Assembly (NCBI GenBank): GCA_964423285.1
Contig: CAYREI010000003.1
Location: 1-47,029, forward strand
Direction of reading: 5' to 3'
Length of the DNA: 47,029 bases
DNA from: an uncultured Pseudomonadales bacterium
Lineage (GTDB): Bacteria > Patescibacteriota > Microgenomatia > UBA1400 > PJMF01
Shown in pieces: positions 1 to 46,843 of this stretch; position 1 is the stretch's first letter; every line of letters begins with the position of its first letter. Below the pieces are notes generated by a model that saw nothing but the letters and a program-made list of their open reading frames with translations, did not search any database and was not told where the DNA came from. The position numbers and the translations under genes are program-made.

Positions 1-2
1 AT

Positions 3-73
3 TGCCCTGTAGTGAAATGGCATCACAATTGCCTCTGAAGCAGTTATTTTAGGTTCGAATCCTAACAGGGCAT
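3..73 (+). tRNA. tRNA-Gln (anticodon CUG)
   Basis: Hand-folded cloverleaf. Acceptor 3-9/66-72 (7 bp, U1-A72); D stem 12-15/23-26; anticodon stem 28-32/40-44. Loop CTCTGAA has T at position 33 and CTG at 35-37. 4-nt variable loop; T stem 49-53/61-65 with TTCGAAT loop. No encoded CCA. Confidence 0.85.
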
Positions 74-115
74 ACTTGCTTATTAGTGCATTAGAAGTTG
101 TTTCGGTCATAATTT

Positions 116-145
116 TTGTCAATTAATTTAAAATTTAGCTATAAT
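116..145 (+). promoter_or_regulatory. Sigma-70-like promoter for the lipoprotein gene: -35 TTGTCA, 18-nt spacer, -10 TATAAT
   Basis: TTGTCA at 116-121 and TATAAT at 140-145. The ATG at 155 lies 9 nt after the -10, implying a very short or absent 5' UTR. Confidence 0.4.
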
Positions 146-154
146 GTAAGCATT

Positions 155-559
155 ATGAAAAAATATTTTTTACTGCTGCCCTTATTTGCTTTTTTATTTG
201 CTGGTTGTAATAAAGTAGATAATCTAAAAAATACACCGTCAAATTCAGTGAATGATCAAGATGAGAAGAGTTCTCCAAGTTCCATACCAAAAAATTTAAT
301 TTCCTGCGATCCGGTTTATTTTGAACGCGATGCTAATGGTATTGTCCCTGATTGCAATACATTTAATGACGATAATAAGGTTTGTTCATATCACACTAAG
401 GAGCAAAACGACAAAATAAAAAATGAACCTATACAATATAAAAATGCTTGCTCAGCTTGTCGCTTTTATGGCGAAACTGGCGTGAGAAAGATCGGTTCTG
501 CCACATTTAATCATCATGGATATATTGAGAGCGGATGCGATGGTGTAATTTGGGAATAA
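155..559 (+). CDS. Small secreted lipoprotein, Cys-rich, with a Kazal-like cysteine signature
   Basis: MKKYFLLLPLFAFLFAGC is a signal peptide plus lipobox (LFAG|C). The mature part has six more Cys, including Y-K-N-A-C-S-A-C (Y-x-N-x-C-x-x-C). The track ORF start at 116 is a TTG inside the predicted -35 box, so I use ATG 155. Confidence 0.7.
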   Translation: MKKYFLLLPLFAFLFAGCNKVDNLKNTPSNSVNDQDEKSSPSSIPKNLISCDPVYFERDANGIVPDCNTFNDDNKVCSYHTKEQNDKIKNEPIQYKNACSACRFYGETGVRKIGSATFNHHGYIESGCDGVIWE

Positions 560-568
560 GTAAAAGGA

Positions 569-601
569 GAGTTCCTAACATAGTATAACAGTGCCATCGA
601 A
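569..601 (+). repeat. Copy 1 of ~33-nt gene-end direct repeat (gagttcctaacatagtataacagtgccatcgaa)
   Basis: Aligned by eye to copies at 2093, 3282, 4719 and 5906. Starts 10 nt after the TAA stop of the lipoprotein gene. Confidence 0.8.
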
Positions 602-603
602 TT

Positions 604-612
604 TGATATAAT
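604..612 (+). promoter_or_regulatory. Extended -10 element TGATATAAT, one of several candidate -10 boxes upstream of the 714 gene
   Basis: TGnTATAAT match at 604-612. Further TATAAT/TACAAT boxes lie at about 647-652 and 675-680. No experimental support. Confidence 0.3.
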
Positions 613-713
613 TTGATACTTTTATTATTTTATTTTTAATATATCCTATAATTTAGTTTTGAAAGTCTAAATAGTACAATTTCTGCCTTGATTATTAGAA
701 TTAGAGTGCTTTT

Positions 714-2102
714 ATGAATAAACAAGAACGAGGAGTTAGAAATACGAGCAATTTTTTTAAAAATCGTCCAATAAAGGGAGATATTTATTCATATACACCA
801 ATTCCCAATCCCGAAATTCATGAGAATGGTCAATCATTACTTAGATTGCCGATTAGATTAGTTGATGAAAAGTTAGACCCTCATAGCGTTTGGTCAAGAG
901 TTGAAAAATGGCTTATCTATTGGGAATCAAACGTTGCTAAGCGTTCAGATCCATTGCCAATTACAGATAAGATTCAGATTGCTAGACTTTCTTCTTCTGG
1001 TTATAGTGAGCGATTATTGGCAGAAAGCGCAAATAACAATTTTTTCAAATTTGCTGAATTGAGAGATAGTCCATACGGGCGTTCACAAATTAAATATTTT
1101 AAACACAGAGTAACTCAAGCTTTATATGCCGTATTAACTGAAGATGAAAAAGAAAAAATAGGTTTATTTCCACAAGAGAGAAATGGTTATGTAGGTCGTG
1201 TTGATCAGATATATAAAGTTTATCCTCAAATTCAAGAAATCATCTCAAAACTTTCTCAGGAAAAAGATTTTGAGATTATTTGGGAACGAAATCCGCATTT
1301 TAGCGATATTTTGATTAGGCTTCTTGACGGTGAAAATTTATTAGATGTAGCATTATCAGTTGGTTTTGACATAGATGGAGTTAGACACAATCCAGTTTTA
1401 ATAAATTCTATCGATGGAGCAACCGAGGCGTTTAAGCAAATGTTACTTAATGCTAGATATAACGGTCGATCTAGTTATACGACTTTGAGAAGGTTTGTTT
1501 TTGCAAAATTTTTTAATTATGGTCTTGATTGGCAGGGAAAAGATCCAGGGAAAAAATTTCACGAGATATCTTATAGATTATTAAATAATCCAAGTGGCGG
1601 AAAATTAGAACGTTTTATAGAATTAATTCCTGCTTTAGAATATATAAATATGTTGATTAATACTTCGCCCATTAATCGATCTTCTTTAGTACTTAAGGAA
1701 AGATTTCCAGGATTTATTATAAAAGATGGCAAAGCAGACATGACAACAGTATCAAGAGAAAAAATGTTTGATTACTTTAAAAGATTTAAAGACAATAAGA
1801 CAATTTCTCCGGGAATAATTTGTTTAGTTAGACATGTTGCGATGGGTGGATCTGTCAAACAAGTCGCTACTAGTTTAAAACAAATAGGCTTTAGAAGTTG
1901 CCAGCTTGGTATGGAGATGATAGTTGGAAAAGGATTGCTATTTATTGAGCAGATATTATTATCAAATGAAAGAAATTTTAATGAGATTGAAGACGATGAT
2001 CTTCGATCATTGTTTAAAAAAAGTACCAAATATGATATTGGATTTTTAATGAAAAAAATTGCTCAAGAAATAAAACAAAGCAAATTAATTAAAGATTCCT
2101 GA
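714..2102 (+). CDS. Hypothetical protein, 462 aa, no family recognised; up to three helix-turn-helix-like segments by eye
   Basis: Long uninterrupted ORF in an AT-rich background. Candidate HTH segments are IQIARLSSSGYSERLLAESA, ILIRLLDGENLLDVALSVG and LVRHVAMGGSVKQVATSLKQIG. The TGA stop lies inside repeat copy 2. Confidence 0.75.
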   Translation: MNKQERGVRNTSNFFKNRPIKGDIYSYTPIPNPEIHENGQSLLRLPIRLVDEKLDPHSVWSRVEKWLIYWESNVAKRSDPLPITDKIQIARLSSSGYSERLLAESANNNFFKFAELRDSPYGRSQIKYFKHRVTQALYAVLTEDEKEKIGLFPQERNGYVGRVDQIYKVYPQIQEIISKLSQEKDFEIIWERNPHFSDILIRLLDGENLLDVALSVGFDIDGVRHNPVLINSIDGATEAFKQMLLNARYNGRSSYTTLRRFVFAKFFNYGLDWQGKDPGKKFHEISYRLLNNPSGGKLERFIELIPALEYINMLINTSPINRSSLVLKERFPGFIIKDGKADMTTVSREKMFDYFKRFKDNKTISPGIICLVRHVAMGGSVKQVATSLKQIGFRSCQLGMEMIVGKGLLFIEQILLSNERNFNEIEDDDLRSLFKKSTKYDIGFLMKKIAQEIKQSKLIKDS

Positions 2103-2125
2103 CATAGTACAACAGTGTCATCGAA
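2093..2125 (+). repeat. Copy 2 of gene-end direct repeat (agattcctgacatagtacaacagtgtcatcgaa)
   Basis: 27/33 identical to copy 1 in my hand alignment. The TGA at 2100-2102 within the repeat is the stop codon of the 462-aa ORF. Confidence 0.8.
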
Positions 2126-2163
2126 ATTAAATATATATCTATATATCAATCTAAAATTAATTC

Positions 2164-2172
2164 TGATATAAT
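2164..2172 (+). promoter_or_regulatory. Extended -10 element TGATATAAT upstream of the ATP-grasp gene
   Basis: TGnTATAAT match 52 nt upstream of the TTG start. AGAGG Shine-Dalgarno 6 nt before the start. Confidence 0.35.
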
Positions 2173-2223
2173 AGACACTCCGTTTTAAATAATCCTAGAA
2201 TATTTTAAGAAAAAGAGGTTATC

Positions 2224-3291
2224 TTGTCTAAATTAATTTATGAATATTATTCCCCCAATGGTTTAAAAAAATCTGGGAATATAACTAACAGCTCTCGTCT
2301 AGTTATTAAAGAAGCAGAAAAGTTAGGTATTGGTTGGAAAATAGAGCCTGGAACTCAGATTATAACCCTAACTTATCAGGGGCAAGAAAAGTCATACTAT
2401 CATCAAGTACCTTCTTCGACCACCGCTCTGGCTCTCTATGCTTGCAATAATAAAAAAGTAACTACTAATTTATTAAAACAAGCGGGAGTCAATGTTCCTA
2501 AAGGATATAGAATCAAACGAAATCAAGAGCAAGACTATTTTTTAGAAGTTTTTTCTTTTTTGAAAAAACCTCTGGTAATAAAACCTACAGATGGGACTTG
2601 GGGAGAAAATATCACAGTTGGCATTAGAGATGAAAAAGAATATCTAGATGCAATAGAGCTGGCTTTTTCATATTCTTTGAAGAAAAGCACTGGGGCGATA
2701 GTTGAAGAAATGTTTTTTGGAGAAGAATATAGAATTCTTTTAACTAGAGAAAAAGTACTTGGAGTTTTAAAAAGGGTCCCAGCTAATGTAACTGGGAATG
2801 GTGAGTATTCAATTAAAAAATTAATCAAGTTAAAAAATAAAGAAGATATAAGAGGAAAAAAAGGCGGTGATAAGTCTCACCTTGAAATTATAATAGATAA
2901 AAAAATGAGATCTTTTTTAGATGAGCAAGAATTGGACTTAGGTTTTATCCCCCCTAAGGGGAAAAGGATTTTTTTGAGAAAAGTTTCAAATACTTCTCAA
3001 GGTGGAGAAGCAATTGATTTTACAGATAAAGTTCACCCTAGCGTTAGAAAAATAGCTCTTCAAGCCATTAGGGCTATACCTGGTCTTTCTTTTGCTGGTG
3101 TTGATTTTATGAGTTCGGACATTACTCAAAAACAAAATAATAACTCATATGTCATTATTGAGATTAATAGTTCACCGGGATTTGATATTCATGATTTCCC
3201 TTATAAGGGTAAAAATCGACACTCAGCCAGAGAGTTTTTACTACTTATGTTTCCTGATTTAAAAGAAAAATTTAGTTTAAAAGTTTCTTGA
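2224..3291 (+). CDS. ATP-grasp family ligase (RimK / cyanophycin-synthetase-N-domain-like), stand-alone
   Basis: LVIKPTDGTWGENITVGI, EEMFFGEEYRILL, RVPANVTGNGEYSIKKLI, SNTSQGGEAIDFTD and AGVDFM...IIEINSSPG are typical ATP-grasp elements. TTG start with an AGAGG RBS. The TGA stop lies inside repeat copy 3. Confidence 0.75.
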   Translation: MSKLIYEYYSPNGLKKSGNITNSSRLVIKEAEKLGIGWKIEPGTQIITLTYQGQEKSYYHQVPSSTTALALYACNNKKVTTNLLKQAGVNVPKGYRIKRNQEQDYFLEVFSFLKKPLVIKPTDGTWGENITVGIRDEKEYLDAIELAFSYSLKKSTGAIVEEMFFGEEYRILLTREKVLGVLKRVPANVTGNGEYSIKKLIKLKNKEDIRGKKGGDKSHLEIIIDKKMRSFLDEQELDLGFIPPKGKRIFLRKVSNTSQGGEAIDFTDKVHPSVRKIALQAIRAIPGLSFAGVDFMSSDITQKQNNNSYVIIEINSSPGFDIHDFPYKGKNRHSAREFLLLMFPDLKEKFSLKVS

Positions 3292-3315
3292 CATAGCACA
3301 AACAGCGCCATCAAA
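3282..3315 (+). repeat. Copy 3 of gene-end direct repeat (agtttcttgacatagcacaaacagcgccatcaaa), with a 1-nt insertion
   Basis: Hand alignment to copies 1, 2 and 4. The TGA at 3289-3291 is the stop of the ATP-grasp gene. Confidence 0.75.
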
Positions 3316-3324
3316 AATTAGACC

Positions 3325-3354
3325 TATAATTTGACACTTGCTACGACAAGTGTT
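3325..3354 (+). promoter_or_regulatory. -10 box TATAAT (3325-3330) followed by an 8-bp stem-loop at the predicted 5' end of a ~150-nt helicase leader
   Basis: Stem 3333-3340 (GACACTTG) pairs with 3347-3354 (CAAGTGTT; one G-U), 6-nt loop. ATG at 3486. The -10 context TATAATTTGACAC resembles TATAATTTGATAC after copy 1. Confidence 0.35.
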
Positions 3355-3485
3355 ACACTCACGTTTCGTTGATTGATGATTATCTTTCAACCTGGTTTAA
3401 GCTCGCAACATTTTTTAAGAATTTTTTCCTTAACTTCCTTGCTTCTTGTCTTTAGCCAATTTTATTTAATAAAGAAAGAAGCAAT

Positions 3486-4718
3486 ATGCAACATTCTAAT
3501 AATCGTGGCCGTGGTAGTGGCCGAAATAATTACTCCCAAAATAGAAATAATAACAGACGTTTTTCTCCGAGTAATGGAAGACGTAGAGCTGGTGGTGGTC
3601 GTAGACAGGCTACCTTTGATCCCAGTCATGTAATTATCCAAGCTGGATTAAAAAAGGCTGAGGTAGTCACAAAAAAATATCAAATCACTCATCAATTTAG
3701 TGATTTTGATATCAGCGATCAGCTAAAAAGAAATATCGCCGATCATGGTTACGTCATTCCCACTCCTATTCAAGACCAAGTAATTCCTCATATTATTAAT
3801 GGTCGTGATGTAGTCGGAATTGCTAACACTGGTACTGGTAAAACAGCGGCTTTCTTAATTCCTTTAATTAATAAAATTATTAAAAATGATCATGAAAAAG
3901 TTTTAATTATTACTCCTACAAGAGAACTAGCTATTCAGGCTAGAGATGAGCTGAGATCTTTTTCCAATAATTTGAGAATTCTTTCAACAGTCTGTATCGG
4001 CGGATCATCTATTAACCGTCAAATAGATTCTTTAAGCAAGAGACCTCATTTTGTGATTGGTACTCCTGGTAGGATCAAAGATCTTAATCAAAGAAAGAAA
4101 CTTAAATTTGAGCAGTTTTCTAACATTGTTCTTGATGAAGTAGATCGAATGCTAGATATGGGTTTTGTTCATGAGATTAGGGCAATTATTAATCATTTGC
4201 CTAAGAATAGGCAATCTTTGTTTTTTTCAGCTACTATGACTGACAGAGTCAGGGAAATAATGAAAGGCTTTTTAAAAAATCCTATTTCTATCTCGGTGAA
4301 AACTCAAGATATGATCGCTAATGTAAGTCAAGAGATTGTGAAGATAAAAGGACGTTCCAAAATTAATGTTCTAGATGATTTATTGCGAACTAAAGATTTT
4401 AATAAAGTTTTAGTTTTTGGCCGCACCAAACGTGGTGCTGAAAATTTATCAAAAAAACTTCAACACAGAGGTTTTAGAGTTAATGCTATTCATGGTAATA
4501 AATCTCAGGGGCAACGACAGCGAGCTTTAAAGGAATTTAAGACTAATAAACTTCAAGCTTTAATTGCAACTGATGTGATTTCTCGAGGATTGGATATTGA
4601 TAATGTGACTCACGTGATCAATTACGACCTTCCAGAATCATATGAATGCTACATCCACCGGATTGGTAGAACTGGTCGAGCTGATCGCGTTGGCACTGCC
4701 CTGACTTTCATTGAATAA
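3486..4718 (+). CDS. DEAD-box ATP-dependent RNA helicase with an N-terminal Arg/Gly/Asn-rich tail
   Basis: Q motif (FSDF...TPIQ), motif I ANTGTGKT, Ia PTRELA, II DEVD (variant of DEAD), III SAT, VI HRIGRTGR. The first ~45 aa are RG/RN-rich (RGRGSGRNN...RRRAGGGRR). Confidence 0.9.
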   Translation: MQHSNNRGRGSGRNNYSQNRNNNRRFSPSNGRRRAGGGRRQATFDPSHVIIQAGLKKAEVVTKKYQITHQFSDFDISDQLKRNIADHGYVIPTPIQDQVIPHIINGRDVVGIANTGTGKTAAFLIPLINKIIKNDHEKVLIITPTRELAIQARDELRSFSNNLRILSTVCIGGSSINRQIDSLSKRPHFVIGTPGRIKDLNQRKKLKFEQFSNIVLDEVDRMLDMGFVHEIRAIINHLPKNRQSLFFSATMTDRVREIMKGFLKNPISISVKTQDMIANVSQEIVKIKGRSKINVLDDLLRTKDFNKVLVFGRTKRGAENLSKKLQHRGFRVNAIHGNKSQGQRQRALKEFKTNKLQALIATDVISRGLDIDNVTHVINYDLPESYECYIHRIGRTGRADRVGTALTFIE

Positions 4719-4751
4719 GAGTTCCTGACAGAGCACAACGGCGTCATACTT
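4719..4751 (+). repeat. Copy 4 of gene-end direct repeat (gagttcctgacagagcacaacggcgtcatactt)
   Basis: Starts immediately after the TAA stop of the helicase. Shares ttcctgaca, acaac and gtcat blocks with copy 2. It is the copy closest to the 3' end of tRNA-Gln. Confidence 0.7.
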
Positions 4752-4790
4752 GAGGAATCTTATTAGTACGGTTAGAATCGTTTTCTCAAG

Positions 4791-4799
4791 TGATATACT
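4791..4799 (+). promoter_or_regulatory. Extended -10-like element TGATATACT, 6 nt upstream of the ATG at 4806 (leaderless-type arrangement)
   Basis: TGnTATACT at 4791-4799. A start site about 7 nt after the -10 would coincide with the A of the ATG. No Shine-Dalgarno is possible. Confidence 0.3.
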
Positions 4800-4805
4800 T
4801 TCTTT

Positions 4806-5915
4806 ATGAAAAGATTTGTTTTTTGTTTTTTTATAACATTAATTTCTTTTATAGGTTTTACAAAAGATGTTTCAGCTCAGGGGGTTGAAAGTCAAGTAAA
4901 AGAGGGTAGGGTGATTGAGATTCTAGAAGCTGGTAAAAAGTCATTTTTAGATGAATTGGTGGACTTTCAGGTATTAAAAATTGAAGTTACTAAGGGAGAT
5001 GAAGAAAGTAAATCAATTGAAATTGAAAATTCAGCTATTGGGTTGGGAATGGTTGATATCAGATATCAAAAATATCAAGTAGATGATCAATTAAAAATTT
5101 TGACCCAACAAGATATTGAAGGTAATATATTTTATTCAATTGAGGGTAAAGTTAAGCGTAGAGGATTATTGACTTTAACTTTTATTTTTATTGCAGTAGT
5201 TTTAGCAGTGGGAAAATTATGGGGAGCTTTATCTTTAGCAGGATTATTTATTTCATTTTTAGTTATTTTTAAATTGATTCTGCCTTTAATCATTAAAGGG
5301 GTGAATCCAGTTCTAGTGGCAATTTTAGGTTCATTGATTATTATTCCGTCTACTTTTTATATTTCTCATGGATTTAATAAAAAAACTCATGTAGGAGTGA
5401 TTTCAACTTTTATTAGTTTAATTATTACTGGCTTGCTAGCAGTTTATTTTGTTGACGCTACCCATTTAACAGGTTTTGCTTCTGAGGAAGCAGGTTTTCT
5501 ACAAGTTGAAAGACAGGGAATGATTGATATCAGAGGATTACTTTTGGCAGGAATTATTATTGGGACTCTTGGTATTTTAGATGATGTAACTATTGGACAA
5601 GCTTCTACTGTTAGACAATTAAAGAAAGCAAATCCTAAAATGGGTTGGCTAGATTTATTTAAAAAAGGAATGAAGGTAGGGCGAGATCATGTCTCTTCAA
5701 TGGTCAATACTTTAGTATTAGTTTATTCTGGCTCATCTTTACCTTTACTATTATTATTTTTTGATAGTCAAAAAACTTTTATCGATGTTCTAGAATTTGA
5801 ATTAATTGCAGAAGAAATAGTCAGAATGCTAGTAGGAAGCATTGGTTTAGTTTTAGCAGCTCCCATGGCTACTATTTTAGCTGCCTATTTATTCAGTAAA
5901 GATAAAGATTCTTGA
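4806..5915 (+). CDS. YibE/F-like polytopic membrane protein
   Basis: N-terminal signal/TM plus a soluble ~110-aa domain, then multiple hydrophobic helices and a GILDDVTIGQAS motif. The family assignment is from memory of PF07907-type architecture. The TGA stop lies in partial repeat copy 5. Confidence 0.6.
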   Translation: MKRFVFCFFITLISFIGFTKDVSAQGVESQVKEGRVIEILEAGKKSFLDELVDFQVLKIEVTKGDEESKSIEIENSAIGLGMVDIRYQKYQVDDQLKILTQQDIEGNIFYSIEGKVKRRGLLTLTFIFIAVVLAVGKLWGALSLAGLFISFLVIFKLILPLIIKGVNPVLVAILGSLIIIPSTFYISHGFNKKTHVGVISTFISLIITGLLAVYFVDATHLTGFASEEAGFLQVERQGMIDIRGLLLAGIIIGTLGILDDVTIGQASTVRQLKKANPKMGWLDLFKKGMKVGRDHVSSMVNTLVLVYSGSSLPLLLLFFDSQKTFIDVLEFELIAEEIVRMLVGSIGLVLAAPMATILAAYLFSKDKDS

Positions 5916-5921
5916 GATAGT
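5906..5921 (+). repeat. Copy 5 (5' half only) of gene-end direct repeat (agattcttgagatagt)
   Basis: 14/16 identical to the first 16 nt of copy 2, after which similarity is lost. As in copy 2 it encodes ...KDS-stop. Confidence 0.55.
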
Positions 5922-5947
5922 TAAATATCCCAACCAATGCATTTTAT

Positions 5948-7507
5948 CTATATCCTTTTAATTGGTAATTTCTTTTCTTTAAACTCTCGAGTAATATCCC
6001 AAATTTGCAAGCAGGGTGCATTATCTGGGCGACAGTATTCTTGAAGCAAATTATTTGGAGGTAAATTAATTTCCAGACGATGATCATTAACGATCAACAG
6101 AATTTGATTAAATCCCTGAGCTTTATCAGCAAATTTTTGAGAAATTTCTCTAACTGGAAAGCCAATGCCTTCTACATAAATATTGTCAACATTTTGACGA
6201 TGAAAATACATCAGGATTCCATCTGGGAGGGTGCCAAACGAGCCTTCAGTGGCGACAGCTACTGTTTGGTTTTTAGCCTGAGTTTTAATAAACTCAACAC
6301 TTTTTTTAACTCCATGACCAGATGACCACTTGTAAAGATATTGCTCTTGGTCAGCGCTAACAAAAGGAATGTTACTAGGGTTAGTAAGTGAAAAATAGAT
6401 AAATTTACTCGATTTAAACCCGATATTAGTTAGCATTGCTCCTAAAATTATTCCTAATATTATTTTTTTCCAGGCAATTTTTTCTTTCTTAATAATTTTT
6501 AGTAGCTCCTGAATTACTAAAATAGCTGAGATAGTGATAAATATACTAATCGGCAAGAAATACCTGGGGTAAACCACTTTTCCCAAGAGTGCAATTGGGC
6601 CAGCAAATAAAATAGTTGAACCGAGTAAAATATGTTGAATACGTCGTTTTTTTATATCCGGTAAAAATTGTCCCAGTAAGTTTAGTAATAAAATGGGCCA
6701 GGTTAGATAAGTCCCAAAATAATTCAAATAGGTAGGAATATTAATTATAGTATCTTTCCATTTGCCTTGAAAAATTACTTCTTTCCAAGGATAGAGAAAA
6801 TCGCTACCTCTGGAGAATAATTGGGAAAAAACAGGGTGTAATTTAAGACTAAAAAATAGTACCATTCCACCAATGATCGCCATTGTAATATGGGCCATTT
6901 GCTTGATTTTAGAGTCTAATTTTGCCGGCTTAAGCCAGGTATAGAGAAATAGGTTGGGAATGATCAAGATAGCCGGTAATTTAGCCCACAATGCTAAGCC
7001 AAAGAATAAAGTAGTTAACCCTATCCACAAGCATTTTTGTTTATTTTCAACGATTTGAATTACACCAATAAATGTCCAGGTTATTCCTAAGGCTAATAAA
7101 GTATCTGTCAGCGCCATTCGATGATGAAAAAACCAGAAAGGCAAAATGCTTCCCAGGAGCATTGCTAGCCAGCTAGTTTTTGTGTTTTCGCCTAGCAATT
7201 TTACTAAATAACTCAGACCCAAAATTTGACCTAAACCAATTAATACTGCCACAAATCTGCCGGCAAATAATTGATCTGAAAATAAAAATTGAAAAGGCAC
7301 CATCAACCACATTAAAAGAGGGGTCTTACCATCATTCATAGGAAAAAATAGATATTGACGCCAATCATCGATAATGAGCTGAGTCCACCTGATGTAAATG
7401 GCTTCATCGGCAAATACTGGTAAAAGTGTTAAATGATAAAGATGAGTAGCTAGATAAAAAATAATAATTAAAATAGGAATTATCCACCAACGAAGTTTTT
7501 TCACCAT
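5948..7507 (-). CDS. GT-C fold membrane glycosyltransferase, family 39/83-like (ArnT/PMT-type)
   Basis: About 12 predicted TM helices. ADEAIY (D-E motif) lies in the first extracytoplasmic loop. Soluble C-terminal domain. Last gene of a tightly packed minus-strand operon. Confidence 0.75.
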   Translation of the reverse strand: MVKKLRWWIIPILIIIFYLATHLYHLTLLPVFADEAIYIRWTQLIIDDWRQYLFFPMNDGKTPLLMWLMVPFQFLFSDQLFAGRFVAVLIGLGQILGLSYLVKLLGENTKTSWLAMLLGSILPFWFFHHRMALTDTLLALGITWTFIGVIQIVENKQKCLWIGLTTLFFGLALWAKLPAILIIPNLFLYTWLKPAKLDSKIKQMAHITMAIIGGMVLFFSLKLHPVFSQLFSRGSDFLYPWKEVIFQGKWKDTIINIPTYLNYFGTYLTWPILLLNLLGQFLPDIKKRRIQHILLGSTILFAGPIALLGKVVYPRYFLPISIFITISAILVIQELLKIIKKEKIAWKKIILGIILGAMLTNIGFKSSKFIYFSLTNPSNIPFVSADQEQYLYKWSSGHGVKKSVEFIKTQAKNQTVAVATEGSFGTLPDGILMYFHRQNVDNIYVEGIGFPVREISQKFADKAQGFNQILLIVNDHRLEINLPPNNLLQEYCRPDNAPCLQIWDITREFKEKKLPIKRI

Positions 7508-15568: not shown

Positions 15569-16240
15569 ATGATGATAGATGTCTTAACACTTTTTCCAGA
15601 AATGTTTAAATCAGTATTGAATGAAAGTATTATTAAACGTGCTAAAAATTTTTCTGCAGTAGAGATTAAAGTTCATAATTTAAGAGATTGGGCTTTAGAT
15701 AAACACAAAATGGTTGACGATCGTCCTTTTGGCGGTGGCCCAGGAATGGTTTTAAAAGTAGATGTATTACATAGGGCAATTCTAGATTTAAAAAAACAAA
15801 ATTCAGACGCAGGAGTAGTTTTATTGACTCCACAGGGTAAAAAGTATTCTCAATTAAAAGCTCAGAGTTTGTCTCAAGAAAAAGGTTTGATCTTAGTAGC
15901 AGGTCATTATGAAGGTTTTGATGATCGGATTAGAAAATATGTTGATCAAGAAATTTCTATTGGTGATTATGTTTTAACGGGTGGAGAGTTGCCAGCTATG
16001 GTGATTATAGATAGTGTAATCAGGCTTTTACCAGGAGTTTTAGGTGATGAAAATTCAGCTCCCACAGATTCTTTTAGCTCAGGCGGATTAGGTTATCCTC
16101 AATATACTCGTCCTGAAGAATTTGAAGGTGTGAAAGTTCCGCAAGTGTTACTTTCTGGAAATCACGGTGAAATAAAAAAATACCGTCGGGAGCAAGCTAA
16201 AAAGAAAACTCAACAGAGAAGACCTGATTTAGTTAGTTAA
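15569..16240 (+). CDS. trmD: tRNA (guanine37-N1)-methyltransferase
   Basis: VLTLFPEMF, DDRPFGGGPGMV, GHYEGFDDR, SIGDYVLTGGE and LLSGNH motifs. ATG at 15572 is an equally possible start. Confidence 0.9.
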   Translation: MMIDVLTLFPEMFKSVLNESIIKRAKNFSAVEIKVHNLRDWALDKHKMVDDRPFGGGPGMVLKVDVLHRAILDLKKQNSDAGVVLLTPQGKKYSQLKAQSLSQEKGLILVAGHYEGFDDRIRKYVDQEISIGDYVLTGGELPAMVIIDSVIRLLPGVLGDENSAPTDSFSSGGLGYPQYTRPEEFEGVKVPQVLLSGNHGEIKKYRREQAKKKTQQRRPDLVS

Positions 16241-42353: not shown

Positions 42354-43394
42354 TCAATGGAGTCCACTTTCTTTTTCCTTGATTTTTTTCTCAATTTCTT
42401 TTAGCAATTTTGAGTTTTCTTTTAAGACTACTTTGCTAGCTTCTCTTCCCTGAGCAATCACTTCTCCTTGATATTTATAAAAACTCCCAGATCTTTCGAG
42501 TACTTTATATTTAACTCCGACATCGATTACATCTCCAACCCAAGAAATACCATTTATATCCATGTCAAATTCGACCATCTTAAATGGAGGAGCGAGTTTA
42601 TTTTTCTTGACTTTGACTCGATGGCGACTTCCTATTATTTCTTCACCTTCTTGAATATTGCCAATTTTACGGATGTCTAAGCGCTGCGAAGCATAAAATT
42701 TAAGAGCATTTCCTCCAGTAGTTGTTTCGGGGCTACCAAACATAACACCGATTTTCATTCTGATTTGATTGGTGAAAATTACCAGCGTATTTGTTTTATT
42801 AATTGCTGCAGCCAATTTACGCATAGCTTGGGACATTAATCTAGCCTGACGACCAATTTGATGCTCACCCATCTCACCTTCGATTTCTGCTTTCGGCACT
42901 AAAGCTGCAACAGAATCTATAACCACTAGATCGACTCCACCAGACCTAATTAACGTTTCAGCTATTTCTAATGCTTGCTCTCCATAATCTGGTTGAGAAA
43001 TGAGCATGTCGTCAACATTAACTCCAATTTTTTCACCTCTAATTGGATCTAAACCATTTTCTACGTCGATAAAAGCTGCAGTTCCACCTTTTTTTTGAGC
43101 GTTAGCAATGGCATGTAAACAAAGTGTGGTTTTACCTGAAGCCTCAGGTCCATAAATTTCTACAATTCGACCACGAGGATATCCACCAATTCCCAATGCT
43201 AGGTCCAAAGAAAGTGAACCAGTTGAGATAGAGGGGAACTTTTTTTTAGATCTCATTGAGTCTCCCATTTTCATAATTGAGCCTTCACCATGTTGTTTTT
43301 CAATTTGCTGCATAGCAATATTGACTGCTTGATCTTTGCCAGATTCTTTTACTTTAACAGTATCTTGAATTTTTGTGCTTTTTTTCTTAGCCAT
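42354..43394 (-). CDS. recA: Recombinase RecA
   Basis: Walker [41 protein letters not shown] and [28 protein letters not shown]. Confidence 0.95.
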
Positions 43395-43613: not shown

Positions 43614-43784
43614 ATGAGTTCAAAACAAAAACTAAATTCGCTGTATTCACAACAACGCAAATTAACTGCGGCTAGAAATAGTGTTAGTAATCCACGTTTA
43701 AAAAAGACTCTAGGGTTAAAACAACAGATGATGAGTCGAAGAATTGGTCGCTATCAGGCTCAACAAAAAGCAGGAAAGCGCTAA
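43614..43784 (+). CDS. Small basic protein (56 aa), hypothetical
   Basis: The ATG at 43614 is the first in-frame start outside the tRNA. TAATG stop/start overlap with the downstream helicase suggests translational coupling. Lys/Arg/Gln-rich, no family recognised. Confidence 0.4.
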   Translation: MSSKQKLNSLYSQQRKLTAARNSVSNPRLKKTLGLKQQMMSRRIGRYQAQQKAGKR

Positions 43785-46700
43785 TGCCAACCTTAAATCA
43801 GTTTCAAGCTGTTTATAAGCGACTCAATCCTCAACAAAAAAAAGCAGTAGACAATATTGAAGGTCCGGTAATGGTGGTGGCTGGTCCTGGAACAGGCAAA
43901 ACTCAGGTTTTAGCGGCTCGAATTGCTAACATTTTGCTTAAGACAGATACTAAACCACGTTCAATTTTAGCCCTGACTTTTACTGAGTCAGCAGCCAAAG
44001 AGATGCGTCAAAGATTAGTTAAAATGATTGGTAAAACTGGTTACTATGTCCAGATCAGTACTTTTCATGCCTTTTGTTCTCAAATAATTAAGATGCACCC
44101 AGAGTATTTTCCAATTGATCGTGGCAGTGAACCATTGAGCGATCTAGAGCGCTATGATATTTTCCAAAAAATTATTGATGATACAGATATTGAAGTAATT
44201 AAGCCTCTTAATCGCTCCTATTTTTATTTAACTGATATTATGTATGCCATCTCAAATTTAAAACGAGAGGGTTTTTTGCCAGCTGATTTTAAAGAGGTGG
44301 TTGTAAAAGAAGAACAACAGCTTAAAGCTGAAAAAGAAAAGCTAAAAAAGACTGAGCTTGCCAAGCGTCAGCGCAATTTAACTAAATGGCAAGAACTAAC
44401 TCAAATTTATGATAAGTATCAACAACGTCTAAGGTCTAGCTTACGTTACGACTTTGATGACATGATCGCTTTAGTTGTAGCAGCTTTTAATGAGCACGAG
44501 CTATTACTGCGAGAATATCAAGAAAATATTCACTATTTTTTAATTGATGAGTATCAGGACACTAACTCTGCTCAAAATAAAGTTGTTGATCAACTAGCTT
44601 CATATTGGGGGAATCAAGCTAATGTATTTGTAGTAGGTGATCCCAATCAATCTATCTATCGTTTTCAAGGCGCATCAGTTGAGAATGTCTTAGGATTTGT
44701 CAAAAACTATAAAAAAGCTACAATTATTACTTTAGATATTGGTTATCGTTGTTCACAAAATATTTATAACAGTGCGGCTAAACTTATTGGACAAAATCAA
44801 TTAACTGAAGTCAGTGAGCAGTTGACTAAATTTTCTTTTACAGACCCACTTAAAAGTCAAACTAAGCAGGAGTTTGAAATTAATCTCTATCAAGCTCCTT
44901 CACAGACATTGGAAACAATTTATATTGCAGAAGAAATCAAAAAATTGCAAAAGAAAGATATTCCACTAGATAAAATTGCAATTTTATATCGTCATAATCG
45001 GGATGTAGTTGAAATTCAGGAAACATTGAATAAGTGGGGTTTGAGTTATGAAATCGATGGAGGCAATGATCTATTGGAAAATGAAGCCATTCGACAACTA
45101 TTAACTTTTTTTCAGGTAATTAAGGATGCACGGATTGCAAAGGAAGATGAACGATTGTTTGAAATTATGCGTTATGAGTGGTTGGGATTAGATCAAGCTT
45201 TAGTGATGAAAGTAGGCAGAGCCGCAGGCAAAGCTAAGCTTAGCATTTTTGATCTAATTGAGTCTGGTTATTCAAAGTTTGCCAAGTATGATTTGGGGAA
45301 TAAAATTACTCCGTTAGAATTTGAACAGTTACCTATTTTTATTTCCAAGCTTCGTGATTGGGGAAGTTTAGATGCAAGAGTAGTTTTCCCAGAGTGGTTC
45401 GAACAGGTAATTAAAGAAAGTGAATTCTTGAATTGGGTACTTAATTCTGATTTAAAAGCTTCAGTTTTAATTCATCTCAATTCACTTTTTAGAGAAGTAA
45501 AAGCTTTGTCTCAAAGTAGATCTAGATTAAACTTAAAAGATTTTTTAGAAGCTATTGCGACTATGAAAGATCACGGCATTAAATTGAATGTTGAAGATTT
45601 AAATGTTAAACAAAACGCGGTTCATCTTTCTACAGTTCACAAAGCTAAAGGCTTAGAGTGGGATTATGTATTTTTAATGCATTGCTTAGATGGGAAATGG
45701 GGAAATAATCGAGTTAGAGAATTATTACCTTTGCCAGCAGGATTACTAAAAAATACTGATTTATCAGCCAAAGAACAAAATGAAGATGAGCGACGCTTAT
45801 TTTATGTGGCACTAACTCGTGCTAGAAAACGACTCACTATTTCATCTCCAGAAACTATTGTGACTGATAATCGAACCAAGGAAGTTATTGGGAGTATGTT
45901 TATTGAAGAACTCAAAGATACTGAGTCTAAATTAAAAACAATTTTTAAAAATATTAAAGCTCCAGAAATTATTAAAAATGCTGATATTTATTTAGCTAAA
46001 CTTTTAGAGTCAACTGAGATTAAAAAAATAAAAGTTTCAGAAAAAGATTTTTATCAAGAATTAGTCAAAGATTTTAAGTTGTCTGTGACAGCATTAAATA
46101 CTTATCTACGAAATCCAAAAGAATTTGTAGAAAATGTATTATTGAGGATTCCTAGGGCTAAGCCGGAGCCAATGGCTTTTGGGAGTGCAGTCCATCAGGC
46201 GTTGGAAAAATTATTTAAATACATCCAAGATGAAGGCCAAAAACCAGCTCTAAAAATATTTTTAGAGGAATTTAAAGAGTCGCTGACTAAAGAACTCATG
46301 ACTTCACAAAATTTTGATCGACGCTTAGATTATGGTCAAAATATTTTGACTGAATATTATCAGCAGTTAGATGAAACGGAAGTTGAGCCATTATTTATTG
46401 AACGCTTTTTTGGCTTTGGTTGGAGTAAAACTATTTTAGGCGATATTCATCTCACTGGTCGTATAGATCGAGTGGATTGGTTGGATAAAGAAAAAAAATT
46501 AGTTAAGGTAATTGATTATAAAACTGGTAAAGCTAAATCTGATAACTACATTGAAGGCAAGATAGTCTCTGCAGGTTTATCGCAACGAGAGCAACAACTT
46601 CCGGAGAGTATTAAAGGCCCATACAAGCGTCAGTTACTTTTTTATAAACTTTTAACAGATTTAGATGAGACCTTTATCCCTGTGGTGACGCAAGGAGAGT

Positions 46701-46843
46701 TTGATTTCGTGGAGCCAAATAGCAGCGGCAAATTAATTAAGCGAAACTTTTTTCTCAAAGATGAGGATGTGAATGATCTAAAAAATTTGATTAAAGAGGT
46801 GATGGCTGAGATTAAAAGCTTAAAGTTTTTAGAACTTATTTAA
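43784..46843 (+). CDS. UvrD/PcrA/AddA-type superfamily-1 helicase fused to a C-terminal PD-(D/E)xK (RecB-family) nuclease
   Basis: Helicase motifs VVAGPGTGKT, DEYQDTN, VGDPNQSIYRFQGA, TVHKAKGLEWDYVF and YVALTRARKRL. Nuclease motifs GRIDRVD, VIDYKTGK and QLLFYKLL in the last ~230 aa. Confidence 0.85.
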   Translation: MPTLNQFQAVYKRLNPQQKKAVDNIEGPVMVVAGPGTGKTQVLAARIANILLKTDTKPRSILALTFTESAAKEMRQRLVKMIGKTGYYVQISTFHAFCSQIIKMHPEYFPIDRGSEPLSDLERYDIFQKIIDDTDIEVIKPLNRSYFYLTDIMYAISNLKREGFLPADFKEVVVKEEQQLKAEKEKLKKTELAKRQRNLTKWQELTQIYDKYQQRLRSSLRYDFDDMIALVVAAFNEHELLLREYQENIHYFLIDEYQDTNSAQNKVVDQLASYWGNQANVFVVGDPNQSIYRFQGASVENVLGFVKNYKKATIITLDIGYRCSQNIYNSAAKLIGQNQLTEVSEQLTKFSFTDPLKSQTKQEFEINLYQAPSQTLETIYIAEEIKKLQKKDIPLDKIAILYRHNRDVVEIQETLNKWGLSYEIDGGNDLLENEAIRQLLTFFQVIKDARIAKEDERLFEIMRYEWLGLDQALVMKVGRAAGKAKLSIFDLIESGYSKFAKYDLGNKITPLEFEQLPIFISKLRDWGSLDARVVFPEWFEQVIKESEFLNWVLNSDLKASVLIHLNSLFREVKALSQSRSRLNLKDFLEAIATMKDHGIKLNVEDLNVKQNAVHLSTVHKAKGLEWDYVFLMHCLDGKWGNNRVRELLPLPAGLLKNTDLSAKEQNEDERRLFYVALTRARKRLTISSPETIVTDNRTKEVIGSMFIEELKDTESKLKTIFKNIKAPEIIKNADIYLAKLLESTEIKKIKVSEKDFYQELVKDFKLSVTALNTYLRNPKEFVENVLLRIPRAKPEPMAFGSAVHQALEKLFKYIQDEGQKPALKIFLEEFKESLTKELMTSQNFDRRLDYGQNILTEYYQQLDETEVEPLFIERFFGFGWSKTILGDIHLTGRIDRVDWLDKEKKLVKVIDYKTGKAKSDNYIEGKIVSAGLSQREQQLPESIKGPYKRQLLFYKLLTDLDETFIPVVTQGEFDFVEPNSSGKLIKRNFFLKDEDVNDLKNLIKEVMAEIKSLKFLELI

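Follow-up and report, generated by a model that had tools for sequence, protein, structure and literature searches.

A conserved direct repeat bounds the units of a variable gene cassette array at the tRNA-Gln gene of Patescibacteria-type bacteria

Genomes of the candidate phyla radiation (CPR)/Patescibacteria are tiny and streamlined, and little is understood of the ways in which these bacteria gain and exchange accessory genes. The question is raised in concrete form at one end of a 47,029-nt stretch of DNA from an uncultured bacterium (contig CAYREI010000003.1, referred to throughout at its full length as the window), where copies of a short direct repeat follow one another downstream of a tRNA-Gln gene with unrelated genes between them: what does this repeat mark? 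An earlier note, made from the sequence alone, had described a repeat of ~33 nt at the 3' ends of five consecutive single-gene units and had offered three roles for it, namely att-like recombination marks of serial insertions, a protein-bound termination or insulator site, or an RNA 3'-end processing signal. The analysis reported here strongly supports the first of these, through the permuted content of related arrays, the identity of blocks that lie between copies of the repeat and the interchangeability of the repeat with the end of the tRNA gene. We consider it probable that the repeat, here called M, is an att-type boundary site of a tandem cassette array anchored at the 3' end of tRNA-Gln, with a recombinase that acts in trans or is absent.

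M is ~28 nt long with the lineage consensus GGTTCCTGACATAGTACAACAGYGCCAT, and the window holds four full copies and one half copy, every one of them on the forward strand and between tRNA-Gln and a convergent glycosyltransferase cluster. Copy 1 (570-597, AGTTCCTAACATAGTATAACAGTGCCAT) has three mismatches to the lineage consensus and scores 40.4 bits against a position-specific scoring matrix (PSSM), copy 2 (2094-2121, GATTCCTGACATAGTACAACAGTGTCAT) scores 43.4 bits, copy 3 (3283-3311, GTTTCTTGACATAGCACAAACAGCGCCAT) carries a 1-nt insertion and copy 4 (4720-4747, AGTTCCTGACAGAGCACAACGGCGTCAT) has five mismatches to the consensus and scores 39.9 bits. The decayed terminal copy 5 (5907-5921), of which only the 5' half GATTCTTGAGATAGT is left, forms the distal end of the array. 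These are the five sites of the earlier note, and they were recovered both by a pattern search and by a core search: a 27-nt degenerate pattern with up to three mismatches found three matches in the window against 0.00 expected from 100 shuffles, and the 12-nt 5' core of M with at most one mismatch matched exactly the five known sites and nothing else. The match of copies 1 and 2 at 27 of 33 positions and the recurrence of TATAATTTGAYAC after copies 1 and 3 were likewise borne out. No further copy exists in the rest of the window, as had been claimed, there being no PSSM match of at least 8 bits on either strand of 7001-47029 and ~40 other genes that are without M; nor was M found in the 10 kb upstream of tRNA-Gln. 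The window's copies are among the most divergent (two to five mismatches, one indel and one terminal half copy) and look like ageing, partly decayed sites when set against the near-identical copies of some relatives. Contigs from several independent samples and assemblers reproduce the window arrangement at 99.8% identity or more.

That there is a repeat is therefore not in doubt, but its extent had been drawn too short, as an alignment of all copies with their flanks revealed that the conserved unit exceeds 33 nt and continues 3' of M into conserved promoter-bearing modules. M is followed by one of a few such modules: module A (..CAAAYTNAAATATATNNCTATATATCAATCTAAA.., often running on to an extended -10 box), module B (..CTTYTCCTCRAGTAGATTTMCYCAATAAATAGTRYGGTTAGAACCTCTTTYTCAAGTTTGGTATAAT, with a sigma-70-like TTAGAA-N16-18-TATAMT and TG extension that ends 6-10 nt before the start codon) or a leader specific to one gene, for example those of g2 and of the helicase gene, where g1 to g5 denote the five genes of the window's array in order. 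The promoter-like -35/-10 elements in the modules, which are calls by consensus match, have M ~25-45 nt upstream of them, and the layout of a unit is a promoter-bearing 5' module, one to three genes, and M. The -10 boxes of cassette promoters lie 6-10 nt from the ATG with no Shine-Dalgarno sequence in the window (4794-4806 and 140-155) and in the module B copies of the related array L112, and the mRNAs of such cassettes may be leaderless or nearly so; g3 in contrast has a clear AAGAGG ahead of its TTG start.

At the other end of the unit, the stop codon of the upstream co-oriented gene falls between -14 and +6 of the start of M in 13 of 17 cases. In the window, as the earlier note had it, the TGA inside the motif serves as the stop of g2, g3 and g5, and g1 and g4 end in independent TAA codons, which lie 9 and 0 nt before the repeat start that the note had used (569 and 4719) and at -13 and -4 from the 28-nt core. 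M is in different frames relative to its upstream genes and two copies stand after these independent stops, and a conserved C-terminal peptide was rejected on these grounds; an alternative genetic code was also rejected, table-11 open reading frames (ORFs) tiling the window. The other four of the 17 cases have 37-118 nt between stop and M, and in three of these the gap (96-118 nt) is filled by non-coding sequence that is conserved and opens with a degenerate M-like stretch. This segment, of which ~85 nt are conserved, is found in L096 (~558-650), L112 (~2068-2180) and L110 (~661-745, reverse strand; its degenerate M-like start reads GGTTCCTGAAATACCGCAACAGCAACTT), and is probably a decayed or empty cassette.

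What lies at the same place in other genomes? When JGI metagenome contigs were scanned with a degenerate pattern, 29 loci came up, among which the high-GC matches are unrelated chance matches and all of the low-GC matches (GC 0.32-0.39) have a near-invariant GGTTCCTGACATAGTACAACAGYGCCAT, often several times within a few kb, with five copies in 6.2 kb in L112. Further arrays were gathered through orthologues of the histidine kinase that adjoins the tRNA and their genomic contexts, and together these yielded 13 distinct arrays, twelve with DNA and one by its gene table only. The flanks are common to all of them, with an OmpR-type response regulator (RR), a small HATPase_c histidine kinase (HK) and tRNA-Gln on one side, and a cluster of PMT and other glycosyltransferase (GT) genes on the opposite side; it is the same tRNA-Gln that heads the array in every related genome. 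Between these flanks the gene set is different in every one of the 13 arrays. There is a single EamA transporter gene in L135 and a single DEAD-box helicase gene in L138, the sole gene between its tRNA and PMT cluster; L127 has Fic and one gene of no known function, L121 a 6PGDH-like enzyme and one gene of no known function, and L131 HIT, a reversed K_trans/cyclase pair and one gene of no known function. At the upper end of the range L112 has five or more cassettes and L124 runs to >10 kb with eight copies of M.

The cassettes are 0.3-2.5 kb in length, are without mobility genes, and carry genes for an ATP-grasp enzyme, a DEAD-box helicase, a YibE/F membrane protein, dehydrogenases, HAD/HD hydrolases, RidA, Fic, a K+ transporter and a Y-family polymerase as well as many that are unassigned. 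The gene that adjoins the tRNA is just as varied, being lipoprotein-like in the window, secreted or transmembrane (TM) in L112 and L098, and elsewhere DsbD-like, Fic, HIT, EamA or helicase. The description of the units as single-gene units holds in the window but not in relatives, where cassettes have one to three genes, some of them reversed. The earlier note had reasoned that mobile units would be argued against by units invariant in content and order across relatives; they differ in every relative. The array locus is a hypervariable accessory-gene site of a low-GC Patescibacteria-type clade, the clade being placed by record names of the relatives such as "Patescibacteria group bacterium".

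M is confined to this locus. All 27 PSSM hits of at least 15 bits in the 235 kb of the 12 arrays are downstream of tRNA-Gln and on the tRNA strand, with none upstream of the tRNA or on the opposite strand, and on contigs of 142-465 kb M is found only within the array, which means that it is not a genome-wide gene-end signal. Cassettes with reversed genes exist, and the orientation of M never changes. Four arrays (L127, L129, L135 and L138) are without detectable M. The closest species-level genomes in GTDB as judged by the helicase (57-75% protein identity, L004-L008) have neither M nor the gene neighbourhood, and an exact-pattern scan of species-representative genomes found no M. A dispersed repeat of the REP or MITE type is not compatible with a single locus per genome, even on the long contigs, and with the lack of inverted repeats, and was rejected.

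Nor does M have the form of a structured signal. No inverted repeats were found at the M sites, the DNA of M with module A or B folds with z-scores of -0.3 to +0.6 on both strands and so has no significant structure, and the eight terminator-like sites in 1-6200 all lie away from M and from gene ends. Rfam 15 has no match at M or at the modules even at E<=5, only the tRNA passing, and ARAGORN makes no tRNA-like call at M. The earlier statement that the motif has no conserved hairpin and is not an ordinary terminator is upheld by the inverted-repeat, folding and terminator scans, and with no fold, no inverted repeats and no terminator M fails the structural definition of attC sites, REP elements and intrinsic terminators. 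Hexamers within M that resemble promoter elements (TTGACA in copy 3, a sigma-54-like TGGCAC on the reverse strand, a sigma-E-like GGAAC) were considered by eye and set aside as their spacing and invariant positions are not kept; a promoter hexamer on the reverse strand of M would furthermore point into the upstream gene, and the promoter-like boxes sit downstream in the modules.

The relationship between M and the tRNA gene is the most informative aspect of these arrays. The sequence immediately after the last base of tRNA-Gln (...CCTAACAGGGCAT/, the slash marking the junction) is one of the modules that follow M: module A in L098, L112, L121, L124, L129 and L133, module B in L096 and L131, and a sequence like short B in the window, with modules A and B following M in other genomes. 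The equivalence is exact to the nucleotide, as the junction tRNA...GGGCAT/CAAAACTATCCTATAATTTGACAC of L138 matches ...GCGCCAT/CAAAAATTAGACCTATAATTTGACAC at M copy 3 of the window, with the helicase leader downstream of both, and the alignment of the two helicase units begins 11 nt inside the tRNA or M and runs on through the gene. In the same manner a DsbD-like+DUF134 cassette that stands after M in L112 stands after the tRNA in L124, and here the two sequences begin to align 8 nt ahead of the junction. The same downstream sequences can thus have either the tRNA end or M as their left partner, joined at the same nucleotide, so that M is the counterpart, carried by the cassettes, of the 3' end of the tRNA.

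The two sites also share a loose likeness, both ending in ..AACAG(N)GC(C)AT (...GGGCAT/ in the tRNA, ...GCCAT/ in M), and a gapped alignment of M with the last 26 nt of the tRNA gives AGGTTC..GA.AT..AACAG.G.CAT with four gaps (P about 0.002 against shuffled M). The ungapped local score of M against the tRNA end was no better than that of shuffles (P = 0.34), and, the resemblance being a gapped one only, the idea that M is an exact copy of a tRNA fragment in a new place was rejected.

That units change position is seen when arrays are compared. The DsbD-like+DUF134 cassette, fifth in the array of L112, comes first in that of L124, where it adjoins the tRNA, and a 6PGDH-like+tRNA_bind cassette lies at +1260 in L112, +2697 in L124 and +490 in L121. 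Blocks that lie between copies of M can moreover be more similar than what surrounds them: the ATP-grasp block of the window (2091-3311, consisting of M, gene and M) is 93.9% identical to L098 with flanks of 75% and 78%, and the limits of this block fall on the two M copies, while the helicase unit (3299-4718) is 84.9% identical to L138 with flanks of 66% and 73%. The opposite is seen between L112 and L121, the flanks of which are 88% identical and their common cassette 80%, so that the history of a cassette is not that of its flanks. Assemblies made independently from the organism of the window are interrupted at M copies 2, 3 and 5, with contig ends at window positions 2089-2146, 3254 and 5947 (L086, L087, L088 and L002), within a few tens of nt of M, and L086, which comes from another sample, has a strain variant of the 3' half of M copy 2. 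An assembly graph that branches at cassette boundaries would be expected to leave contig ends at M copies, and the breaks and the variant are consistent with, although only suggestive of, population heterogeneity at these boundaries.

M itself appears to be under constraint. Among 26 copies from nine genomes or fragments, half (13) differ from the consensus at one position at most, and no variation is seen at positions 3-5, 9, 11, 13-14 and 26-28. The modal M is identical in several genomes, the HK proteins of which are 62-87% identical to that of the window and the protein-coding flanks 66-88% identical at the DNA level. Copies are as similar between genomes (86%) as within them (88%) despite the divergence of kinases and flanks, which argues that the sequence is maintained and is not the product of local concerted evolution.

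We infer from these observations that M is a recombination site, that the recombination is site-specific and where the crossover would lie. A cassette, probably a circle with one M/module junction, would recombine into the 3' edge (...CAT/) of either the tRNA or an M already in place and give tRNA-end/module-gene-M/X, in which the tRNA is intact and the incoming M lies against the former downstream sequence (X). Insertion at the ...CAT/ edge would in this way explain why M abuts the leader of the previous occupant. Later events of M x M recombination would delete or reshuffle units, and the decay of M, as in the window, would fix cassettes in place. An enzyme not encoded nearby would have to act in trans, and the architecture of the site, judged from its sequence, would fit better with one that tolerates heterology or exchanges a single strand. 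A more specific version, which we put forward tentatively and regard as rather doubtful, is a sequence-recognised functional analogue of the integron, not described before, in ultra-small Patescibacteria, in which a recombinase in trans would act on a one-sided, non-palindromic 28-nt site, either M or, as platform, the tRNA-Gln 3' end, and exchange strands at ...CAT/ without homology beyond it. Single-gene cassettes with their own promoters could in this way be taken up, stacked and reshuffled beside an essential tRNA.

A number of results weigh against site-specific recombination at M. The integrase that the earlier note had suggested looking for upstream of the tRNA was not found in the 10 kb there, no recombinase of any class was found in the window among ORFs other than 42354-43394 and 43784-46843 (about 57 kb in all, window and upstream DNA together); none was found in any array either, except for an unrelated IS30-type transposase in L098. 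Candidates checked for a hidden recombinase were the upstream 316-aa and 122-aa genes, g2, and cassette proteins of 341, 286, 766, 155, 195, 196, 238, 288 and 296 aa, along with the tRNA-adjacent proteins of L112 and L098 (366 and 241 aa), which are homologous secreted or TM proteins. No recombinase came out of a Pfam scan at E<=1 of g1, g2, the upstream genes and four of the cassette proteins (other proteins were scanned at E<=0.01), of PHROGs and NCBIfam searches with g2 and nine cassette proteins, or of sequence searches of the PDB with three of them. No circular cassette or free element carrying M was found in viral contigs (IMG/VR) or in phage and plasmid records, no cognate integrase-bearing element that uses M was found in those collections or in the matched metagenome contigs, and the short contigs have no terminal overlaps and are not circular. 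The shape of the site is also unusual, with a conserved left half, a right half that varies by module type, only ~3-5 nt in common with the tRNA at the junction and no dyad symmetry, and it therefore does not fit a classical tyrosine-recombinase core with an identical overlap of 6-8 bp. Finally, no insertion or excision was seen directly, there being in the data no near-identical pair of strains that differ by exactly one cassette, and all of the data are metagenome assemblies.

The lack of an enzyme invites an explanation without one, in which M and its modules, with 60-100 nt of near-identity, are homology anchors and RecA recombination after DNA uptake swaps, deletes or adds units; M could then itself be a relic of duplicated tRNA 3' ends. 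Direct repeats of this kind are, with the modules, long enough for homologous recombination at low frequency, the variant 3' half of copy 2 in L086 is suggestive of a breakpoint within M, there is the loose likeness of M to the tRNA end, and neither the roughly 57 kb around the locus nor any of the arrays yielded a recombinase. However, the tRNA end and M have only ~10 nt in common, and those gapped, yet identical downstream sequences abut both at the same nucleotide. Recombination by homology would also predict concerted evolution within genomes and drift between them, which is not what the equal similarity of M between and within genomes suggests, and it leaves unexplained why the 28 nt of M are better conserved than the modules that adjoin them. 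We think it unlikely that RecA alone accounts for the array.

An explanation by gene expression is less likely again, and would make M a protein-bound signal, either an operator bound by the OmpR-type response regulator that is encoded next to the tRNA or a terminator or insulator of the roadblock kind between co-directional units. It draws on the position of M just upstream of promoter-like elements and, for the most part, at the stop codon of the gene before, on the RR/HK pair that is syntenic with the array in every genome and on the lack of intrinsic terminators between co-directional genes. Against this, the orientation of M is kept where the next gene is reversed or convergent, as between the 766-aa and reversed 365-aa genes of L112 and at half copy 5 of the window, no M-like site is found near the RR/HK genes, and the four arrays without M still carry expressed-looking genes with promoters of their own; tRNA-end equivalence, permuted order and block-wise identity are all left unexplained. 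A regulatory role as a second function of M is possible. That M acts as RNA, whether as a 3'-end processing or stability signal or as a tRNA-like tag common to the transcripts, would seem very improbable: its strand specificity, its place at stop codons and its likeness to the 3' part of a tRNA speak in favour, but z is about 0 on both strands, neither Rfam nor ARAGORN recognises M, and it is present at its one locus also where no co-oriented transcript would end. The two gene-end roles proposed in the earlier note, termination or insulation and RNA 3'-end processing, are not sustained given one locus per genome, an orientation that is kept beside reversed genes and the absence of structure or Rfam match.

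The array of the window can now be read from its proximal anchor, the tRNA-Gln (CTG) gene at 3-73 on the forward strand (ARAGORN; Rfam 62 bits), the 3' end of which is ...CCTAACAGGGCAT. A weak match to the Y RNA-like YrlA model at 22-125 (24 bits against a gathering score of 69) overlaps this gene and is treated as the tRNA-like part of the model fitting tRNA-Gln. The first junction module (74-154) is similar to short module B (ACTTGC..TTATTAGTGCATTAGAA) and contains, 9 nt ahead of the ATG of g1, a promoter-like TTGTCA-18-TATAAT (116-145; 11/12 in the promoter scan). All five genes of the array and the modules ahead of them are on the forward strand. g1 (155-559) encodes a lipoprotein-like protein of 134 aa with no family match, and g2 (714-2102), which ends at the TGA within M copy 2, a protein of 462 aa with no assigned function, a homologous cassette of which was found in L116. 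Module A follows at 2122-2172 (CGAAATTAAATATATATCTATATATCAATCTAAAATTAATTCTGATATAAT, with an extended -10 box at its end) and leads to g3 (2224-3291), which starts at TTG, stops at the TGA within M copy 3 and encodes an ATP-grasp enzyme of 355 aa (Pfam).

The leader and putative promoter of the helicase cassette (3312-3485, TTGACA-17-TACACT at 3331-3359) precede g4 (3486-4718), a DEAD-box RNA helicase (Pfam) of 410 aa that is 88% identical in protein sequence to the helicase of L138. The ~170 nt of this leader are ~93% identical to those of L138, compared to protein-coding flanks of 66-73%, and have no Rfam match; from the sequence it may be an autoregulatory 5' untranslated region. Short module B at 4748-4805, which also follows a copy of M in L096, has a promoter-like TTAGAA (4772-4777)-16-TATACT (4794-4799) with TG before the -10 box, and this box ends 6 nt before the ATG of g5 (4806-5915), a YibE/F-family membrane protein of 369 aa (Pfam, 9.4e-74) with its stop at the TGA within the half copy. 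Outside the array, the convergent PMT_2 glycosyltransferase gene (5948-7507, reverse strand, Pfam) is the first of the conserved distal flank and adjoins the array in relatives too. It opens an envelope-glycosylation block of ~24 kb (5948-29521) with three PMT_2-type transferases, about eight GT2/GT1 genes, dTDP-rhamnose genes (rmlB/C/D-like), UDP-glucose dehydrogenase, a flippase and LytR-CpsA-Psr, within which trmD (15569-16240) sits on the opposite strand; the block appears ordinary for the phylum.

Several features of the related arrays deserve mention in their own right. In L116 (1-2068) two g2-type units occur in one array, separated by M, a small reversed ORF of 109 aa and M; the second has a leader 89% identical to that of g2 in the window, and the coding part of the first is only 76% identical. 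The IS30-family transposase gene of L098 (HTH_38 + rve; 5857-6846, reverse strand) lies in the distal degenerate part of the array, adjoining two decayed copies of M (22.8 and 17.1 bits). Two different genomes have a triple direct repeat (TGTCGGGATAYT x3) immediately ahead of an HTH_24+Fic gene. In L127 it lies in the initial ~40 nt downstream of tRNA-Gln (on the reverse strand of the locus) and in L005 at 6323-6358, right after the helicase stop, and by its sequence it looks like an operator array for the fic gene. On the RR/HK side the flank is itself somewhat plastic, as PhdYeFM/ParE toxin-antitoxin pairs have been inserted beyond the RR/HK genes in two relatives (L129 6832-7426 and L133 15578-16160), with no copies of M.

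The locus represents a compact and recurrent solution to the acquisition of accessory genes, in which one tRNA-anchored slot stacks unrelated and apparently self-expressed cassettes that are different in every lineage sampled. Should the 28-nt site prove to be what a dedicated enzyme acts on, it would constitute a new pair of site and recombinase with an unusual one-sided recognition, it would provide a marker for flexible gene pools in uncultured bacteria, and it could possibly be turned into a tool for the insertion of genes at a defined site in these organisms. Even on a conservative reading, the repeat is the boundary of a cassette and neither a terminator nor a peptide.

How does this array relate to systems that are already known? 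A full-text literature search, limited in its reach, found no description of such an array in Patescibacteria. Integron arrays, both sedentary chromosomal integrons and the integrase-less CALIN, likewise have a fixed platform site followed by tandem and mostly co-oriented cassettes of one to three genes, each ending in a conserved site. As in integrons, content and order differ between close relatives, all of the sites have one orientation, the proximal site (here the tRNA end) is unlike the cassette-borne sites and ORFs often end inside the site. However, no IntI-type tyrosine recombinase adjoining the array was found in the window, in the 10 kb upstream or in the arrays of relatives, and M is 28 nt long, non-palindromic and without the R''/L''/L'/R' hairpin of attC, so that it would be recognised by its sequence and not by a folded structure. 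Furthermore the cassettes appear to have promoters of their own in modules A and B, unlike integron cassettes, which are mostly promoterless and depend on a common Pc, and the anchor here is a tRNA gene. With no IntI, no attC hairpin and cassettes with their own promoters, the array fails integron membership.

Genomic islands at tRNA genes (tDNA islands; Islander database, PMC4383910) and the tycheposons of Prochlorococcus (bioRxiv 10.1101/2020.12.28.424599) offer a second comparison, with separators that are partial tRNA copies and with degenerate remnants. Here too accessory DNA has gathered next to the 3' end of an intact tRNA gene, successive units are set apart by a direct repeat with a likeness to the tRNA end, newer units would push older ones distally, older repeats are degenerate and the genomes are streamlined. 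The differences are that the separators of tDNA islands and tycheposons are true partial tRNA copies, whereas M is a 28-nt sequence of its own that aligns to the tRNA only with gaps, and that at least the active elements there carry an integrase, usually next to the tRNA, none of which was found in the arrays examined here. Lacking separators that are exact fragments of the tRNA, and with no integrase found, the array fails strict membership of this class as well.

Two further systems share the separation of small units from the enzyme that moves them. The cis-mobilisable elements (CIMEs) described for the streptococcal ICESt1 and ICESt3 are att-bounded units without recombination genes that accrete in tandem at one site by means of a recombinase from another element. 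The units described here are likewise bounded, by M or the tRNA end, and no recombinase was found in them, with M a probable att site; they are far smaller, with many to an array, and no cognate integrase-bearing element was found. The pdif modules of Acinetobacter plasmids are small gene modules with 28-nt XerC/D sites on which a host enzyme acts in trans, and their sites are imperfect palindromes that alternate in orientation and are found on plasmids, whereas M is non-palindromic, always direct, chromosomal and anchored at a tRNA gene. In function, the array of the window and its relatives comes closest to two known arrangements, the integron cassette array and the tandem accretion of integrase-less att-bounded elements at a tRNA gene.

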